A stretch of 64,000 nucleotides of DNA from a virus (taxonomy: Duplodnaviria > Caudoviricetes): the IMG/VR virus record IMGVR_UViG_3300016476_000578, positions 5,191-69,190 of that record; one strand, given 5' to 3'. A program made the translations under genes and the position numbers. The notes under the pieces were generated by a model that saw nothing but the letters and a program-made list of their open reading frames with translations, had not been told where the DNA came from and did not search any database. Shown one piece after another: positions 1-7,246 of the stretch; the stretch's first letter is position 1; each line of letters begins with the position of its first letter.

Positions 1-499
1 GAATGTCATAAGTTTCATTAACTAACTCTCGATGTGCATTAGTTGCAACCCAGTTATGATTATAACATTCTTTCATTGATATCTCAGCATGACGAATCCA
101 CGGTTTTCCTCCTATGAGACGACCTAAAAAATCATTTGGATCATATGACCCCGCGTGCCATAGTCCATGCAGTACAACCGGAATATTAAGCAATTCGCTC
201 ATGTATTTTACATTGATAACACCAGGATGCCATGCATCTGTAAAAATAATGTGATCGCCTGATTCGATAAGGCCTCGCGTAAACAACTCTGCTAACTTAT
301 GTACTTGTGTTGCTTTGTACATATTAGTGCCGCCGAAGTTTAAAAAAGCTCCTGGTGTCGTTGCTTCTGGAATTGTTAAATCTCCCTCTACAACTACAAC
401 ATCAAACCCGTTATCTCGTAATAATTTTGGAATATGTGTCTTCCACTCACAAGTATACCGAGTTGGTACTGATTCTATGTCTACTAAAAATATCTTCAT
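1..499 (-). CDS. Phage GT-B-type glycosyltransferase-like protein (partial, runs off left edge; absent from ORF track)
   Basis: Manual translation from ATG at 499: MKIFLVDIESVPTRYTCEWKTHIPKLL...IIFTDAWHPGVINVKYMSELL...GLWHAGSYDPNDFLGR, open to base 1. Resembles phage glycosyltransferases seen in DNA-modification loci (recalled similarity). Confidence 0.6.
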   Translation of the reverse strand, partial: MKIFLVDIESVPTRYTCEWKTHIPKLLRDNGFDVVVVEGDLTIPEATTPGAFLNFGGTNMYKATQVHKLAELFTRGLIESGDHIIFTDAWHPGVINVKYMSELLNIPVVLHGLWHAGSYDPNDFLGRLIGGKPWIRHAEISMKECYNHNWVATNAHRELVNETYDI

Positions 500-500
500 C

Positions 501-851
501 TTATCTTTCAATTAGTGCTCCATTTTCCCAATCTTCCCAAACTTCTACTTTGTACAATTCTGGAAATTGATCTAATAACCATTCGCCAATAGCTTCGCAA
601 GACATTGCACCAAACTCTAATACATTTGCAAAGCCTTTTTCAAAGTTCAATTGTAATGTTCTTTTTATTTCTCGATTCAACAAAATAAATTCCTTATCTC
701 GGTCTGTATGTGTTACTGTTGCATAACATCGGAATCCGAACATATGTCTATGTCTATCCGATAAGAATGCTACTGGTGGAAATACTTCTTTTGCTGCAGG
801 CCAACAATGAAACCCTTCCATACTAAATGTTACTACTACGCTGTACTTCAT
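501..851 (-). CDS. QueD-like T-fold protein, DpdL-like (putative 7-carboxy-7-deazaguanine decarboxylase)
   Basis: FHCW, LSDRHRHMF (LxxxHRHxF), SCE and C-terminal WEDWENGA. T-fold QueD paralog lacking the CxxxHGH catalytic Cys motif. Confidence 0.6.
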   Translation of the reverse strand: MKYSVVVTFSMEGFHCWPAAKEVFPPVAFLSDRHRHMFGFRCYATVTHTDRDKEFILLNREIKRTLQLNFEKGFANVLEFGAMSCEAIGEWLLDQFPELYKVEVWEDWENGALIER

Positions 852-1239
852 TTGCTATTAATTGTTTGTATTTTGTTGTTGACCACCCATGGTCTCTGTT
901 TATAAAATGAATATCGATACCTAAATCCTTTCCGGTAAAGTCTTTTCCGATGTAATCATCTCCTAAGAATCTAATATCTGGATCGATTCCTTTAAGGAAC
1001 TCATATAGTATTTCTTCGGTAGAATATGTTATAACTTCATCAACCATTTCTAATGAATATAACATTTCTTTTCGTTCATCTAAAGATAATATTGGTTTTG
1101 ACTTTTCAGGTCGCTCAATACTAGGATCTGCATGTAATAATACTATTAACCAAGAACAGTGTTTTTTACATTCTTTAAACATTTTGATATAACCCGGATG
1201 AATTACATCGAAGTTACCTGCAATTACACCATGTTTCAT
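823..1239 (-). CDS. TagD/RfaE-like cytidylyltransferase (HIGH superfamily)
   Basis: GNFDVIHPGY (HxGH variant), ERKEML, LGDDY, and C-terminal WSTT motif. Confidence 0.8.
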   Translation of the reverse strand: MKHGVIAGNFDVIHPGYIKMFKECKKHCSWLIVLLHADPSIERPEKSKPILSLDERKEMLYSLEMVDEVITYSTEEILYEFLKGIDPDIRFLGDDYIGKDFTGKDLGIDIHFINRDHGWSTTKYKQLIANEVQRSSNI

Positions 1240-1661
1240 TGTCTATCAAATTTATAATCATCAGGTGTTACTTGTTGCATATTGTGCACTGTCGTACAAA
1301 ATAACGAATAATCTGCATACACAACCTTAATGCTATCAGTCTTTTTCAGTAAGCCAGCATCTGCACAATTTAACATTAATAAGATATGTGCGCGGATTCT
1401 GATCATCGGAGGAACCTTTTCTAACATTCCTGGAGTTACTTCAATTGTAACAAATGTTGAATCTGTCATCATTTGGAATACTAAATCCCATGCTTCTGAT
1501 TTGATCAATTGCTCAGTTGTTGGAGAACATAAATATATGTGTGGAACTTTTGCTTGTTTAACTTGATCAAATGCTTTTGTGTCAGCAATAAACAAAGTTT
1601 CGATATCGCTATAACGACCTTCAACTTCTTTGCCGAACCAATGTGTTCTATAACCAATCAT
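1236..1661 (-). CDS. Hypothetical protein, first gene of the modification operon
   Basis: 141 aa ORF directly behind a promoter-like element; 4-nt overlap with next gene. Confidence 0.6.
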   Translation of the reverse strand: MIGYRTHWFGKEVEGRYSDIETLFIADTKAFDQVKQAKVPHIYLCSPTTEQLIKSEAWDLVFQMMTDSTFVTIEVTPGMLEKVPPMIRIRAHILLMLNCADAGLLKKTDSIKVVYADYSLFCTTVHNMQQVTPDDYKFDRQ

Positions 1662-1666
1662 ACTAT

Positions 1667-1696
1667 ATTATAATAAATTTATTCTTATTTACCAAA
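1667..1696 (-). promoter_or_regulatory. Class I (sigma70-like) promoter, near-leaderless
   Basis: TTGGTA-N18-TATAAT, 5 nt before ATG at 1661. Confidence 0.55.
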
Positions 1697-4198
1697 TGAA
1701 AAGAATTTTTTTGCATTATTATTTTCAGGAAGCTGTCCCCAACCCATTGCAGAATAAAAATCATCAAACTTATTACTTAGATCTGAAGTAAACATTTTGT
1801 TTCTATCAATATACTGTTCAACAAATTTTACAATCTCTGGCGGATCTTGATATCCTCGTAATGCTATTGTTTCAAATCCGTACGGATTGTTTAACAAATA
1901 TCCCCACTTTACTTTTTCTCCATCAGATATAGGTAACACATCGGTAGTTAGTTGTGTTAACATATCATTGAAGTTAATTGCAGCTTTTACGTGTGCAGTG
2001 GATCCTTTCATATAACCACTAAATGGCTTTCGTTTCTTGATATATTTTGATAATTCTTTGACACTAGAATTTTTCATAATATTCAATACTTCAGAAGTTT
2101 TAATATTACTTTTAAAATTATGTATCAATGTTGAGGTTTCTTGTTTATCTTTTCCTTTAAGAATATACCACAATGTTTCCTTCATGATTTTTTTGAAATC
2201 TGTCGGGAAACTTGACCTTACAACATCTAATCCTTTTATATCCAATTTATCTGTTGGTTTACCTTCTTTAAAAATAACCCATTGTGCGTATCGCTTTTTT
2301 GCAATCCATAGTCCTGACTTAGCAATATACTCTTGTTTAATTTGAAACCTATGTGTATCAGTATTATGAAATACTTTTGCATACTGATTATACATTAAGT
2401 TTACAATTTTTTGAATCTCCGATGCAATTACATTTGTCTGTTCAATCATAAATTGTTCATCATCAGTATTACAATTCGGATAACGATGTTTGATTAAAGG
2501 TTCGCTACTACAAAATGTTGAATCTGTATCGGTATAAAATGCAAACTCTGCTTTATCTCCGGATGCATTAATAAAATGGTCTACACCTAATTCTTTTGTA
2601 TAATAATTGTTAATAACCTTTGCTGAGAATTTGATAATACTTTGCCCTACTGCTGTAATTGCTCCGGCATTATCTAAATCATAGAATCTAAAAGTTTTAA
2701 GTCCTAATACTCCGTAAAATGAATTAAGCAATACTTTTTGTGTTAACTGCAACGCGTCATAAAACTTATATTCCTCAGTTCCAACTTCATATGTATCTCG
2801 TTTGTCTTTGTAAATAACACGTTCATCAAACCATTTTTCTAGAATAGTTGGAAGGAATCCTCGCTGATCGTTTCTATATACTGCGCCGTTGCTAGCAACC
2901 GAGTAATTATTATCAAGTAACCATTGTTTAACATCTTGCACATATGTACCATCAGTTATCATAACTTGCTGAGGCTCTTGTTTTAATAAACATTCTTGAT
3001 TCCAATTAGAAATTACACATACTTTGGTTTCTGGAGATATGTTTGCTGTCATGATAATACTAGGATATAGTGACGTTAAATCTAAGTCATATATCCACTT
3101 GTATAAACCTGGTACTGGTGCTTTTACATATGCTCCTGCAAGTGCGTCTGCTAATGTTTCTTCTTCAATAAATCTAAATTGTTTATTTGGTGCTACATAT
3201 CCATTACGTTTTAAATCTACAATGGCAGCTCCATCGAGATATTTAGATGCATAGTATACATCTTCATATGGTACGTGTCCTTTGTGACATATAGTACGTG
3301 CTAAATTTAAAAGTTGAAGTTTTTCATCTAATTCATAAACTAGATCAACGTCTGTCATGTTGTAAAAAGCAAACTTATGAATATCTTGTGTAAATAATAC
3401 ATCTAAGTCACCATCATATTCAACTTTACCTCGTCCTAATTCTGTCTTTGCAACTGTATCTAATCGATAATTAGGTAATTCAGTGTATGTAAAATTCTTA
3501 TACAATTTAATGTAGTCTAAACTAGAGACTCCAAATATTTTCCATTTTCCTGACTTAGTTTGTTCAACGATTCCTGCGGGGCTAAATTTCTTGATTGCTT
3601 GTGCGCCTAATACCTTTTTGCATCGACCCATAAGATATGGAATATCATATCCGTCAGTGTTCCAACCAGTAATTACTGTTGGTTGTATTTCTGCAAATTT
3701 ATTGATAAATCTAGTTAATAAATCTCGTTCATCTCGAAATATTTCTAGAACATACCCGTCGCCTTGTATCTCACGATCCTTTATACGATTTTGTTCGTCT
3801 AATATTAGTACCCGACGATCCTTCCCTGCTTTATCATAATATGCAATAGATGTAATAGATGTGCGTACGTCTTCAATTGTACTATATCCATTTTCATCTT
3901 TTGCAGTTTCAATATCAAAAAAGAAGTCTCGGTGGCTTTTTGAAGGTTCATCTGATTCATAATATAAATCAATCAATGTTCGAACTTCTTCATTTAAGTC
4001 AGATTCGTATGATTTGGGATTGTCTCGATGATTTCCTGGAACTTTGTCTAATCTAGTTCCGTCTAATGATTGATACTGTCCATCTGGGTTAGGTAAATAT
4101 CCGTATGGTTGGAATGCGAATTTATTATGTCCTAATTCATCATCCCACACGTGCATAATGCCGTTTTTCTTGTCGTAACCTATTGCTTGATATGCCAT
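1685..4198 (-). CDS. Family B DNA polymerase (T4 gp43-like)
   Basis: Exo I FDIET, Exo II GWNTDGYDIPY, motif A DLTSLYPSII, motif B KVLLNSFYG, motif C YTDTDS, KKRYA. Confidence 0.97.
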   Translation of the reverse strand: MAYQAIGYDKKNGIMHVWDDELGHNKFAFQPYGYLPNPDGQYQSLDGTRLDKVPGNHRDNPKSYESDLNEEVRTLIDLYYESDEPSKSHRDFFFDIETAKDENGYSTIEDVRTSITSIAYYDKAGKDRRVLILDEQNRIKDREIQGDGYVLEIFRDERDLLTRFINKFAEIQPTVITGWNTDGYDIPYLMGRCKKVLGAQAIKKFSPAGIVEQTKSGKWKIFGVSSLDYIKLYKNFTYTELPNYRLDTVAKTELGRGKVEYDGDLDVLFTQDIHKFAFYNMTDVDLVYELDEKLQLLNLARTICHKGHVPYEDVYYASKYLDGAAIVDLKRNGYVAPNKQFRFIEEETLADALAGAYVKAPVPGLYKWIYDLDLTSLYPSIIMTANISPETKVCVISNWNQECLLKQEPQQVMITDGTYVQDVKQWLLDNNYSVASNGAVYRNDQRGFLPTILEKWFDERVIYKDKRDTYEVGTEEYKFYDALQLTQKVLLNSFYGVLGLKTFRFYDLDNAGAITAVGQSIIKFSAKVINNYYTKELGVDHFINASGDKAEFAFYTDTDSTFCSSEPLIKHRYPNCNTDDEQFMIEQTNVIASEIQKIVNLMYNQYAKVFHNTDTHRFQIKQEYIAKSGLWIAKKRYAQWVIFKEGKPTDKLDIKGLDVVRSSFPTDFKKIMKETLWYILKGKDKQETSTLIHNFKSNIKTSEVLNIMKNSSVKELSKYIKKRKPFSGYMKGSTAHVKAAINFNDMLTQLTTDVLPISDGEKVKWGYLLNNPYGFETIALRGYQDPPEIVKFVEQYIDRNKMFTSDLSNKFDDFYSAMGWGQLPENNNAKKFFSFGK

Positions 4199-4707
4199 TA
4201 ATTTATTTTGTATATATGCGGTTCATGTCTTTTTAGACCATAGTCGTCTAAACCATATCCTAGTACCCACTCATCGCCAATTTCGAATCCGTAAAAGTCT
4301 GGAGTCATTGTACCTGACTCTCGTTTCAATAATGTTACAACCTTTACTTCTTCTGCTAGACGATTGTTTGCTAATATTATTGCTTCAATCATCGTGGCGC
4401 CGGTATCTAAAATATCGTCGACAATATAAACCCGTTTTCCTTTTAAATCTAATTCTAATCCTTTGAGTACAGATACTCCATGAGAATTATCTTGTCCGTC
4501 ATATGATTTTAGTCGTATAAAATCTACTTCGCAATCGATTGACATCATTCTAGTTAAATCCGAAAAGAAGTGAAATGACCCATTCAATATACATATTAAT
4601 ACTGGTGGAAGTATATTGTTGTTAGTCATCATATGATCGACTGATATTGCTTCTGCTAACTCTTTTACTCGTTTAGCAATGTCTTCTTGCTTGATGATGA
4701 TTTCCAT
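4198..4707 (-). CDS. hpt: Hypoxanthine-guanine phosphoribosyltransferase
   Basis: ILNGSFHFFSDL, PRPP-binding VYIVDDILDTGAT, VLGYGLD. Confidence 0.9.
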   Translation of the reverse strand: MEIIIKQEDIAKRVKELAEAISVDHMMTNNNILPPVLICILNGSFHFFSDLTRMMSIDCEVDFIRLKSYDGQDNSHGVSVLKGLELDLKGKRVYIVDDILDTGATMIEAIILANNRLAEEVKVVTLLKRESGTMTPDFYGFEIGDEWVLGYGLDDYGLKRHEPHIYKIN

Positions 4708-4913
4708 AACCGATAAATACCATATAAATTAATAAAAATTATAACTAAACTTAATACCATATGACTGATATTATGTATGAAAATATCATAAACAATCCAA
4801 CCACAATCTCCGAGTATCCATGAAATCATTGCAGTACGAGTTAGTCCACGAGCGTTGGTAAGATACCCAATCAATACCAACGCAGTGCTTATCCAGCCTA
4901 ATATTTCAATCAT
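4665..4913 (-). CDS. Small three-helix membrane protein (PnuC/YgjV-like half transporter)
   Basis: Three hydrophobic segments; LGW start, W..GD.GWI.Y and NLYGIYRLW patterns. Confidence 0.45.
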   Translation of the reverse strand: MIEILGWISTALVLIGYLTNARGLTRTAMISWILGDCGWIVYDIFIHNISHMVLSLVIIFINLYGIYRLWKSSSSKKTLLNE

Positions 4914-5209
4914 GATTTTGAATTTATCATTGCAATATCAGACTCTCGGATCAAAATGTATTCTTCATTGTCAATATTGATTTTTTTCTGAGACCCTAAG
5001 TTGCCAGAATAAATTTTTACTTGCATTCCTGGCTTTGTTGACATCGGGATTCGATCCCCAGTTTGTGTAAATAATCCATCGCCGGTTGCAATAACATCGC
5101 ACGTAACATAATCATCCATGCCTGTCATAACGATAATTCCACTTTTAGTTTTTTCTTGTTTTACTTGTTCTTTAACAAGTACTTGATCACCAATTGGTTT
5201 CCATTCCAT
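4910..5209 (-). CDS. groES: Co-chaperonin GroES (T4 gp31-like role in capsid folding)
   Basis: KPIGDQVLV, KTKSGII mobile loop, V.ATGDG, YILIRESDI. Confidence 0.92.
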   Translation of the reverse strand: MEWKPIGDQVLVKEQVKQEKTKSGIIVMTGMDDYVTCDVIATGDGLFTQTGDRIPMSTKPGMQVKIYSGNLGSQKKINIDNEEYILIRESDIAMINSKS

Positions 5210-5221
5210 AACCTATTCCTT

Positions 5222-5470
5222 TTATTTATTGTATAAATTAATAACTGATTCTTTTGTAATTGACTGCCCAACTAAGCGTCCTAGTTCCATGCCGTTTTTT
5301 ATAACTAAAACTGTTGGGACGTTTCTTACATTCCACGTTTTACATGTTTCTGGACTAGCATCAGCATCAATATAAGTAATTGACATTTGCGATTGCAATT
5401 GTTGAATTTGCGGTTTGATTACTTTACATGGTCCGCACCATTCTGCGCTAAAATATAATACTTGTTTCAT
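5222..5470 (-). CDS. trxA: Thioredoxin
   Basis: WCGPC active site; VPT cis-Pro motif. Confidence 0.93.
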   Translation of the reverse strand: MKQVLYFSAEWCGPCKVIKPQIQQLQSQMSITYIDADASPETCKTWNVRNVPTVLVIKNGMELGRLVGQSITKESVINLYNK

Positions 5471-5526
5471 TTTGTTAAAATATAATTAATTTGGTAATTT
5501 CCGAATGTCGTTGTTGTCGTCCACAT
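5467..5526 (-). CDS. 19-aa mini-ORF MWTTTTTFGNYQINYILTK bridging queE and thioredoxin
   Basis: ATG 1 nt after the queE stop; its TGA overlaps the thioredoxin ATG (ATGA). Confidence 0.3.
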   Translation of the reverse strand: MWTTTTTFGNYQINYILTK

Positions 5527-5527
5527 A

Positions 5528-6304
5528 TTAAACTCCCCTTTTAGTATCATATGCAATGATATGATCTCGGCCTGTCATATTGTACCCATGTTCCGCGCAC
5601 AATTCAAAAACTATTGGATACATTTTAATTAATTCTTCTCGCGTGTCACCTGCTGGCATGATATAAGTTTTATCCTTTGGGATATCGAGAAACTGTCTGA
5701 ATTCTTCAATTTCTCGAAGATTATCCTCTGTTCCGTCCCAGACTGGTTTATAATGATAATCTGTATGGTAGGATATCATTGCGTTAATCGCTGTATAGTT
5801 TAATCGAAATTTATTGTGCTGATCGACCATCTTTTGATCCGTGATCGCACCCTGCGGCGTAGCAACACCCAAAATGGGAATGCTATTGTTAAACTTAGGA
5901 CTAAGAGAGATAAGCCCAATAGGATAATCAGTTTCAATAAAATGTGAACCTTCAGTTTCAATAGTAATAAGAATACCTCTTTCATTTGCAAAGTGTGTCA
6001 GTTCATTTACTAATGCCGGATGCATTGTCGGAGAACCTCCCGTTAGCATCATTTCTTTGATATGCGGATTTTTATCATAAATATCGATGATATCATTAAA
6101 TGTAAAAGTACCTTTTTCTGGATGTATTGAAGTATACCAACTATCGCACCAACCGCCCTCTCCAAAATAACATCGATGTGTACAACCGGTTGTGCGTACT
6201 GCAATTGTAGGTCGACCGAATCGGCTTCCTTCGGATTGAACGCATCTATATAATTCAACAATTGGTAAGACTTTGTTGTAGTCTGTAATTCTTCCTGGTT
6301 TCAT
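5528..6304 (-). CDS. queE: 7-carboxy-7-deazaguanine synthase (radical SAM)
   Basis: QSEG..GRP, GCTHRC-x7-CDS cluster motif, LTGGSP, IETEGS, LSPK. Start moved to ATG 6304 (MKPGRI). Confidence 0.88.
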   Translation of the reverse strand: MKPGRITDYNKVLPIVELYRCVQSEGSRFGRPTIAVRTTGCTHRCYFGEGGWCDSWYTSIHPEKGTFTFNDIIDIYDKNPHIKEMMLTGGSPTMHPALVNELTHFANERGILITIETEGSHFIETDYPIGLISLSPKFNNSIPILGVATPQGAITDQKMVDQHNKFRLNYTAINAMISYHTDYHYKPVWDGTEDNLREIEEFRQFLDIPKDKTYIMPAGDTREELIKMYPIVFELCAEHGYNMTGRDHIIAYDTKRGV

Positions 6305-6311
6305 AAACTCC

Positions 6312-6656
6312 TTAAAATGGTAAGTCGTCATCGACTGACTCAATAGTATTGGTAACATTTAATGATTGAATAAGATTATTGAACTTTTCTTCTAATGCAA
6401 TCAATCTATTTGAGATTTCAGCAATATCTAATTCAACTGGGGTAGTAGTTTTACCAAAATATTCATCTAGAAATGATTTCGGATATGTTGCTACGCGATT
6501 GTATTCTGGGGTTGACCGTTCTTCTGGTAAATCAGTATATATAACATGAATGCCTTTTTCTTTAGCAGCTTCATATACTTTTTTGCCAATGCCGGTAAGC
6601 CTAGTTGCATTACCGCTATAGTCATATAATGATATGTATTGTTCGTTACTCTTCAT
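6312..6656 (-). CDS. Hypothetical protein
   Basis: 114 aa ORF packed in the operon; acidic DDDLPF C-terminal tail. Confidence 0.6.
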   Translation of the reverse strand: MKSNEQYISLYDYSGNATRLTGIGKKVYEAAKEKGIHVIYTDLPEERSTPEYNRVATYPKSFLDEYFGKTTTPVELDIAEISNRLIALEEKFNNLIQSLNVTNTIESVDDDLPF

Positions 6657-7122
6657 ATATACTCGAATTATTATCGTTTTCGAAACATTCTACTTTAATA
6701 CACTTGCAACGGCCTGCATCTGTTTTTGAAAGTACTTCATTAAATTTATCATAAACTAATTTAGCACATGATTCAGCACCCATTTTATCCATAACTCGTA
6801 AAGAACAAATACCTTCCATTGCCATAGTTTCAAATAAATCTAAATATGGATCATCTTTTTCTATTAACAAGGTATGATCCCACATATGATTCATCCAATC
6901 TTTTAGGCCGTTGCCTTTTGGCGGAGTCTTGAAACCACCATAATCAACAATCCAATTCATATCATCTAATTGTTTGTCAATATCAGGTTCATTTGAAGCA
7001 AACCATACTTTAAATTTTAAAGCATATCCATGTAACAATTCGCAGTGCGAATGTGATGCTTTCCACTGTCTTAATGCTACTGAATAGTTTTCAAATAATT
7101 TTGTTGAAATATATCTAGCCAT
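6646..7122 (-). CDS. queD: 6-carboxy-5,6,7,8-tetrahydropterin synthase
   Basis: HCELLHGY (CxxxHG motif), DYGGFK, WDHTLL, AES, VECFENDNNS. Start moved to ATG 7122 (MARYIS). Confidence 0.88.
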   Translation of the reverse strand: MARYISTKLFENYSVALRQWKASHSHCELLHGYALKFKVWFASNEPDIDKQLDDMNWIVDYGGFKTPPKGNGLKDWMNHMWDHTLLIEKDDPYLDLFETMAMEGICSLRVMDKMGAESCAKLVYDKFNEVLSKTDAGRCKCIKVECFENDNNSSIYEE

Positions 7123-7246
7123 TTTTTTTTGGAGTTTTTGGGGTTGTAGTTTTTTTAACTGGTGGAATTTCAATAGTAACATATTCTGGGAAGAACATAT
7201 TCATTCCAATACCTGTACAAACTGTTATTGTTTTTTTCTTAGCCAT
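7115..7246 (-). CDS. 43-aa basic small protein between folE and queD (not in ORF track)
   Basis: MAKKKTITVCTGIGMNMFFPEYVTIEIPPVKKTTTPKTPKKNG. Start overlaps folE stop; stop overlaps queD start. Confidence 0.5.
   Translation of the reverse strand: MAKKKTITVCTGIGMNMFFPEYVTIEIPPVKKTTTPKTPKKNG

Follow-up and report, generated by a model that had tools for sequence, protein, structure and literature searches.

Conserved linkage of a GT-B glycosyltransferase gene to dpdL and a long dpdA suggests a possible glycosylated 7-deazaguanine in phage DNA

The window analysed here is a 64,000-nt stretch of viral DNA (bases 5191-69190 of the 69,190-bp IMG/VR record IMGVR_UViG_3300016476_000578, with a CheckV completeness estimate of 41%); the left 5.2 kb of the record was also read. 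The left end of the window is predicted to be part of a QueC-less 7-deazaguanine DNA-modification module, and the host genome of this module is that of an uncultured T4-like phage whose complete relatives measure ~160 kb. No match to cultured phages was obtained by megablast with the first 8 kb of the window. The central element of this report is a glycosyltransferase gene of the module. It is found next to dpdL and next to a gene for a protein resembling tRNA-guanine transglycosylase (TGT), termed long DpdA, in phages and in bacterial islands, and its product may place a sugar on a deazaguanine in DNA.

Genes of the module

The 343-aa glycosyltransferase was modelled with AlphaFold2 (pLDDT 96.2, pTM 0.92) using 53 homologs that reach down to 29% identity. 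A Foldseek search of the PDB with this model identified a GT-B fold, with GT4/GT5 enzymes matched at E 1e-12 to 1e-8 and at least 500 matches at E <= 0.001. The best matches are Pyrococcus glycogen synthase, BshA and MshA, and TarM was also found; further solved matches have small-molecule acceptors, including LmbT, SenB and a tetrahydrobiopterin glucosyltransferase (rank 27). In a viral structure library, the homolog from phage ACP17 was the best match (TM 0.91). The open reading frame (ORF) at 1..499, in which the original prediction had suspected a glycosyltransferase while allowing that the GT-B fold might be missing, therefore belongs to a real GT-B enzyme. Arg203, Lys208 and Glu265 are invariant in the 53 sequences and Glu257 is nearly so. 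We take Arg203/Lys208 to be the phosphate-binding pair and Glu257/Glu265 to be the EX7E motif, and the protein looks like an active transferase. The PF00534 profile scores 24.6 bits by hmmscan (cut-off 26.4) and 27.7 bits in a six-frame search that counts neighbouring pieces. The family comprises 1157 clusters at 50% identity (E <= 0.001) and at least 8000 matches at the 90%-identity level.

Left of the window, to which the original prediction had pointed, lie the remainder of the glycosyltransferase gene and, overlapping it by 17 nt, the gene of a 421-aa protein containing FGDSGGYQ. This protein itself gives no hit to PF01702, and neither do the more distant long DpdAs; the domain is carried by orthologs of 72-77% identity, among them P0438 (74% identity; 28.5 bits, cut-off 26.3). 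Single-sequence and narrow-profile searches of the PDB returned nothing useful, and only a diverse profile reached TGT. With a profile of 16 diverse long DpdAs, 44 of the 49 distinct sequences matched among solved structures are TGT (best E 0.008), and the alignment spans the DSGGFQ and 'MAFD' regions of these structures. Asp79, Ser80, Gly81, Gly82, Gln84, Asp115, the H210-x-LG element and Asp243 are invariant in the profile. The 421-aa protein is related to a 424-aa protein that adjoins the ACP17 glycosyltransferase (hhalign probability 89%), and no relation to DpdA3 of phage phiST (CGPG_00065) was detectable (hhalign probability 0.2%). We assign it, from these comparisons, as a predicted TGT-like long DpdA. 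Its C-terminal tail reads ...NFNKYFKF (record 3409-3432), and that of the family B DNA polymerase reads ...KKFFSFGK (window 1685-1710). Relatives retain NFNK[FY]F[KT]F in long DpdA and KFFSFGK in the polymerase, and the glycosyltransferase has no such tail. The two tails look like a shared sliding-clamp docking peptide.

The record encodes FolE, QueD, QueE, DpdL and long DpdA. QueC was found neither in this 41%-complete record nor in a 100%-complete relative of 159,586 bp with terminal repeats. The small T-fold protein carries LSDRHRHMF, which fits LxxxHRHxF, the defining motif of DpdL (Cui, Hutinet et al., NAR 2023, PMC10516641), in place of the CxxxHGH of QueD. The motif is retained in nearly all DpdL homologs collected. 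A tblastn alignment with phiST DpdL (CGPG_00067) covers 100% of the query at 42.7% identity (E 4e-17). The earlier reading of this T-fold paralog as a DpdL homolog is borne out by the published motif and by this full-length identity. Matches to DpdL were also observed at the C-terminal end of two larger annotated proteins, one of 293 aa in Chryseobacterium phage MA9V-3 (L088 6452-7333) and one of 383 aa in Vibrio phage Bakedbeans (L091 5221-6372), in which DpdL may be fused to another domain.

All module genes in the window and in the left flank are located on the minus strand (Table 1). The four genes named in the original prediction exist where it placed them, the sole exception in that observation being the promoter. 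The gene of the 141-aa protein overlaps the nucleotidyltransferase gene by 4 nt, the latter overlaps dpdL by 29 nt, and the ATG of the glycosyltransferase gene follows one base after the dpdL stop. The tight coupling proposed for these genes is thus confirmed, but the block does not end with the fourth gene and runs on into long dpdA. The further claim that one promoter drives the genes is not established: the region contains 28 sigma-70-like sites, compared with 27.3 expected from shuffles, so the TTGGTA-17-TATAAT pair is not evidence for a promoter. The polymerase gene stops only 23 nt before the 141-aa gene, which makes read-through from it equally possible.

Downstream of long dpdA are genes for a sliding clamp (phrog_223), a dUTPase and a clamp loader. 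Upstream of the block, the polymerase gene is followed by genes for an HPRT-like phosphoribosyltransferase, QueE, a 114-aa protein, QueD and FolE. The HPRT-like gene is conserved between the QueE and polymerase genes in relatives; its product may recycle guanine freed by base exchange or activate a deazapurine base.

Table 1. Features at the left end of the record (window positions, unless marked as record positions).
Feature	Position	Strand	Remarks
N-terminal 166 codons of 343-aa GT-B (GT4-like) glycosyltransferase	2..499; open frame 2-499/511; record 4658-5689	-	rest of gene left of window
DpdL-type T-fold protein, 116 aa, LSDRHRHMF	501..851	-	phrog_17812 2.7e-24; tblastn to phiST DpdL
Cytidylyltransferase-like nucleotidyltransferase, 138 aa, HPGY + GWSTT	823..1239	-	PF01467 54.9 bits; phrog_7878
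Conserved 141-aa protein, no family	1236..1661	-	~250 relatives
Sigma-70-like hexamer pair TTGGTA-17-TATAAT	1667..1695	-	upstream of 141-aa gene
Family B DNA polymerase, 837 aa, tail ...KKFFSFGK	1685..4198	-	homologous to annotated phage polymerases
HPRT-like phosphoribosyltransferase, 169 aa	4198..4707	-	PF00156 1.9e-25
QueE-like radical SAM enzyme, 276 aa	5528..6358	-	TIGR03365 6.8e-14 (below its cut-off); PF04055
Conserved acidic 114-aa protein overlapping QueE and QueD	6312..6656	-	no family found; retained in relatives
QueD/PTPS-family protein, 178 aa, CELLHGY not CxxxHGH	6646..7182	-	PF01242 43.3 bits
GTP cyclohydrolase I FolE, 235 aa	7239..7946	-	PF01227 2.2e-44

Linkage in phages and bacterial genomes

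The conservation of the module was counted in IMG/VR over the 62 of 80 loci that span the interval between the polymerase and glycosyltransferase genes. Every one of these 62 contains DpdL, and DpdL, the glycosyltransferase and long DpdA are contiguous in IMG/VR relatives wherever flanks exist. Among cultured phages, DpdL lies within 4 kb of the glycosyltransferase in 18 of 18 records with a full-length match (ACP17, 11 PA5oct-like phages, Phosso, BUDD, X1, BCSR5 and BUCT-ZZ01), and QueD, FolE or QueE surround the pair in the loci inspected, those of ACP17, PA5oct and Phosso. Cellular genome assemblies, which were scanned with a 9-sequence glycosyltransferase alignment, yielded 30 loci; long DpdA adjoins the glycosyltransferase in nearly all of those with flanks, and DpdL is present in most. 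Ten alphaproteobacterial loci, including those of Methylobacterium, Ochrobactrum, Pelagibacterium, Aurantimonas and Azospirillum, insert a Vut_1/YhhQ-family membrane protein (28.5 bits, cut-off 27.2). YhhQ is reportedly a preQ0 importer.

In the island of Ochrobactrum sp. MYb379 (L114 641-13823), genes for a GmrSD-type nuclease, an integrase and two large proteins without assignment (853 and 411 aa) border those for long DpdA, the Vut_1/YhhQ-like transporter and the glycosyltransferase. Islands of this type may be undescribed self-modification or defence islands.

The choice of DpdA divides the DpdL phages. Those without the glycosyltransferase (phiST, MA9V-3, D479, Ahp1 and RHph_I1_18) carry DpdA3, as detected by jackhmmer, and the partner of the glycosyltransferase is always a long DpdA of 420-540 aa and never the 260-aa DpdA3. 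DpdL systems are therefore of two kinds, and the glycosyltransferase tracks long DpdA and not the nucleotidyltransferase. DpdL, the glycosyltransferase and long DpdA form the conserved core. Across ~130 loci from unrelated phages and bacteria, each glycosyltransferase of the family was accompanied by DpdL or long DpdA. The original prediction was to be refuted if the glycosyltransferase/nucleotidyltransferase pair occurred independently of deazaguanine genes in relatives; this was not observed, as the glycosyltransferase family was seen only beside DpdL or long DpdA. The co-occurrence of all four genes with deazaguanine genes, which the original prediction proposed to check, holds for DpdL and the glycosyltransferase, together with long DpdA, and fails for the nucleotidyltransferase, which is kept in 36 of the 62 relatives.

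A sister subfamily of the glycosyltransferase, with weaker matches in 227-kb Xanthomonas and Erwinia phages, was left out of the linkage counts. At the one sister locus inspected, in the 229-kb jumbo phage PhiXhv-15 (L086 4618-7852), the gene stands beside GlmS and a BshB-like deacetylase, and no deazaguanine genes are annotated nearby. This subfamily possibly belongs to another sugar pathway in PhiXhv-15, and the context gives a hint that the glycosyltransferase family may use UDP-GlcNAc.

The nucleotidyltransferase was proposed to be a TagD-like cytidylyltransferase that supplies an activated donor to the glycosyltransferase. Its PF01467 score exceeds the cut-off of 21 (Table 1), and in the motif GNFDVIHPGY the second His of the canonical HxGH is replaced by Tyr; 41 of the 42 homologs found share both HPGY and GWSTT. 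The scores remain far under the equivalog cut-offs (TIGR01518, 56.6 versus 165.4; TIGR02199, 67.1 versus 181.5), so membership of the superfamily and the HPGY variant stand, but the TagD and RfaE domain II assignments are missed and the substrate cannot be named. The role as donor supplier is not supported by the distribution of the gene. The 26 of 62 IMG/VR relatives that lack it keep the glycosyltransferase. It is also missing from the loci that encode the glycosyltransferase in ACP17, PA5oct and Phosso, and 29 of the 30 cellular loci are likewise without it. Conversely, homologs occur in 127 cultured-phage records, and no glycosyltransferase-bearing phage is among the 40 listed. They are a frequent kind of phage auxiliary gene and show no apparent connection to the module.

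The nucleotidyltransferase could equally serve a separate sugar cluster, which a complete relative (G001, 27.4-36.4 kb; L133 1391-10378) carries at a distance of 5-15 kb downstream of dpdA. This cluster encodes NeuB, a CMP-sugar synthetase, a 2-hydroxyacid dehydrogenase, two epimerase/dehydratases, a GT2 and two GT4 enzymes, one of which matches PF20706, 'GT4 in conflict systems' ('GT4-conflict'). Its proximal glycosyltransferase genes are syntenic in many relatives, with or without the nucleotidyltransferase. The present record stops inside a UvdE-like gene, just short of the position of the cluster in relatives.

The 141-aa gene lies inside the interval in 57 of the 62 relatives, and the remaining five have a paralog near QueD. 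The protein is lineage-specific and shows 34 invariant columns among its relatives. No family was found in Pfam, PHROG, NCBIfam or PADLOC, and there was no tblastn match in cultured phages, no PDB sequence match and no Foldseek match, with Atlas hits below 0.8. Its profile found nothing in the ACP17, PA5oct and Phosso loci. Together with the nucleotidyltransferase, the 141-aa protein is a lineage-specific accessory outside the core. In its AlphaFold2 model (pLDDT 87.5), residues 3-140 are matched by three QueE chains at Z 5.3-5.8, a range that lies within the noise stated for the tool. An hhalign alignment of the EVEGR...TLFI strand to QSEG...PTIAVR of QueE covers only 18 columns and is not significant (E 0.08). 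The cysteine triad of radical SAM enzymes is absent from the family, which has a single nearly invariant Cys (C45). A cysteine-less QueE-like half-barrel that might bind CDG (7-carboxy-7-deazaguanine) or CPH4 is a weak lead from this model. A STAS-domain identity was rejected, as the matches reach residues 3-96 only.

Additional ORFs were observed within the interval in some relatives. Homing-endonuclease-like ORFs lie inside the module (between DpdL and the glycosyltransferase in L024, L037, L051, L058 and L066, and at L024 5185-5772), of a 194-aa zinc-finger type and of a 195-aa type with an HNH-like N-terminal motif, and small proteins beginning with ...MRRFGTKNL are encoded repeatedly between the genes of the polymerase and the 141-aa protein. 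The extra ORFs between the polymerase and glycosyltransferase genes were rejected as pathway enzymes; on the basis of N-terminal sequences only, they were read as homing endonucleases or MRRFGTKNL proteins.

The proposed pathway and its alternatives

Gene identities, folds and linkage were observed directly, and the acceptor, the donor and the order of steps are inferred from them. According to their family assignments, FolE, QueD and QueE would produce CDG. DpdL would then process CDG, the published proposal being decarboxylation to 7-deazaguanine (PMC10516641), and long DpdA would swap guanine in DNA for the deazaguanine base. The glycosyltransferase would use a host nucleotide sugar to glycosylate the deazaguanine, most likely when the latter is already in DNA. 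The resulting base, a glycosylated 7-deazaguanine, would protect the genome against nucleases. We put the probability that the glycosyltransferase acts in this manner, with a deazaguanine acceptor and a host nucleotide sugar as donor, at about one half. The DNA hypermodification reading of the original prediction is retained in this form as a prediction well supported by the conserved linkage to deazaguanine genes, but without the nucleotidyltransferase as donor supplier. A broader reading is advanced tentatively: long DpdA and the GT4 enzyme may be a two-gene unit that writes a glycosylated 7-deazaguanine, the first sugar-bearing purine analogue in any genome, in both phages and bacterial islands. 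The unit would be fed by the DpdL/CDG pathway in phages and by the YhhQ-like importer in bacterial islands.

Several points weigh against the proposed glycosylation of deazaguanine. The sugar on these DNAs is a prediction from genes, folds and linkage. Plain 7-deazaguanine has no hydroxyl group, and a sugar would have to be joined to it at an unusual position (C7, N2, O6 or the CDG carboxyl). Conceivable linkages are a C-glycoside at C7 and an acyl glycoside on CDG, both of which would be unprecedented in DNA. The proteins of the glycosyltransferase family are acidic (median isoelectric point 5.7), and the acceptors of their closest structurally solved relatives are small molecules or glycans instead of DNA. 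DpdL is missing from five of the ten transporter islands, in which the glycosyltransferase and long DpdA are both retained; the acceptor therefore need not be the DpdL product. Decarboxylation of CDG by DpdL, that of phiST included, is so far a published proposal (PMC10516641). Expression of ACP17 dpdL and dpdA in E. coli gave no 2'-deoxy-7-deazaguanosine (dDG), and other enzymes were perhaps required (Cui et al., PMC10516641); the phiST pair failed as well (PMC10516641), so the ACP17 result does not single out the glycosyltransferase.

The order of steps may be reversed, with the glycosyltransferase acting on a free deazapurine (7-deazaguanine, CDG or an imported precursor) and long DpdA inserting the pre-glycosylated base, which would leave the end product unchanged. 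This order is unlikely overall, but it is given real weight because of the missing hydroxyl group, the acidic family and the small acceptors of the structural neighbours (BshA, MshA, LmbT, SenB and the tetrahydrobiopterin glucosyltransferase). It would also fit the pairing of the glycosyltransferase with the larger DpdA, never with DpdA3, and the joining of a base transporter to the glycosyltransferase in bacterial islands. DNA glycosylation in T4 is nevertheless post-replicative, and TGT-type pockets are close-fitting around the base, both of which favour addition of the sugar after insertion.

The remaining explanations do without a glycosylated base. The glycosyltransferase, together with the nucleotidyltransferase, might be a mere neighbour of the deazaguanine genes and serve host-surface or virion glycosylation, as the original prediction had also considered, or another metabolite such as a pterin glycoside. 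The proximity of the sugar cluster in relatives, the frequency of nucleotidyltransferase homologs among phage auxiliary genes and the pterin glucosyltransferase at rank 27 of the solved matches are consistent with this explanation. It is rendered improbable by the strict association of the family with DpdL or long DpdA and by the overlap of the glycosyltransferase gene with dpdA; moreover, FolE and QueD are absent from the bacterial islands with the glycosyltransferase, DpdA and the transporter, which makes a pterin acceptor unlikely in these islands. A non-transferring role seems very improbable. In that case, the glycosyltransferase-fold protein would be a structural or loading partner of long DpdA, comparable to DpdB, which bacterial DpdA needs, and the DNA would contain only dDG or dCDG. 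The strict gene pairing with long DpdA would be accounted for, but Arg203, Lys208, Glu265 and the EX7E spacing show little or no variation down to 29% identity, which is rare in inactive scaffolds.

To our knowledge, the known 7-deazaguanine DNA modifications (dPreQ0, dPreQ1, dADG, dG+, dDG, dCDG, mdPreQ1 and fdPreQ1) carry no sugar, and all DNA sugars that we know of in phages are on pyrimidines. No paper was found that links a glycosyltransferase to deazaguanine in DNA. A glycosyltransferase and a distinct long DpdA travel together in phages of Pseudomonas, Acidovorax, Sinorhizobium, Xanthomonas, Burkholderia and Synechococcus, in abundant aquatic T4-like phages and in bacterial islands, and this points to an undescribed DNA base. 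If deazaguanine is indeed glycosylated, this would explain the absence of dDG when ACP17 DpdL and DpdA are expressed in E. coli, the nature of the modified G in PA5oct, a therapeutic jumbo phage, and what some modification-dependent nucleases evolved to sense. The DNA of PA5oct resists cutting at five G-containing restriction sites (PMC12191111); a modified G was inferred in that study, in which the base was not identified and only QueE and PTPS-like genes were cited.

Comparison with known systems

Among the closest described systems is the DpdL/DpdA3 system of phiST (PMC10516641). Both systems contain FolE, QueD, QueE, a DpdL with LxxxHRHxF and a TGT-superfamily transglycosylase, both lack QueC, and both are located beside replication genes. 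However, phiST has no glycosyltransferase, a small ATPase-like gene stands in its place, and the 260-aa DpdA3 has no detectable similarity to the 421-aa enzyme. The DNA of phiST contains plain dDG (PMC10516641).

With regard to fold, the glycosyltransferase most resembles the retaining GT4 enzymes BshA and MshA (TM 0.63-0.71, E 1e-10), with which it shares a C-terminal domain of the EX7E type. The sequence identity is only 12-16%, and the gene context is entirely different.

Sugars on modified bases are known from two other settings. In T-even phages, alpha- and beta-glucosyltransferases glucosylate 5-hydroxymethylcytosine. As in T4, a phage GT-B enzyme would here draw on a host nucleotide sugar to glycosylate a non-canonical base as protection against nucleases. 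The base in the present module would be a purine analogue introduced by base exchange, whereas that of T4 is a pyrimidine made at the nucleotide level, and no T4 enzyme is among the top 50 structural matches of the GT4-like glycosyltransferase. In mannosyl- and galactosyl-queuosine of tRNA, a sugar is attached to a 7-deazaguanine derivative after TGT-type insertion. This modification differs in that it resides in RNA instead of DNA and that its sugar is on the cyclopentenediol hydroxyl, which dDG and dCDG lack.

The bacterial Dpd islands (DpdA/DpdB/DpdC; dPreQ0 and dADG) resemble the bacterial copies of the present pair as mobile islands encoding a TGT-like DNA transglycosylase. None of the PADLOC models match the parts of the module. 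The bacterial copies are accompanied by integrase or resolvase genes and, in one case, by a GmrSD-type nuclease, and the partner of DpdA in them is a glycosyltransferase, often with a YhhQ-like transporter, instead of DpdB and DpdC.

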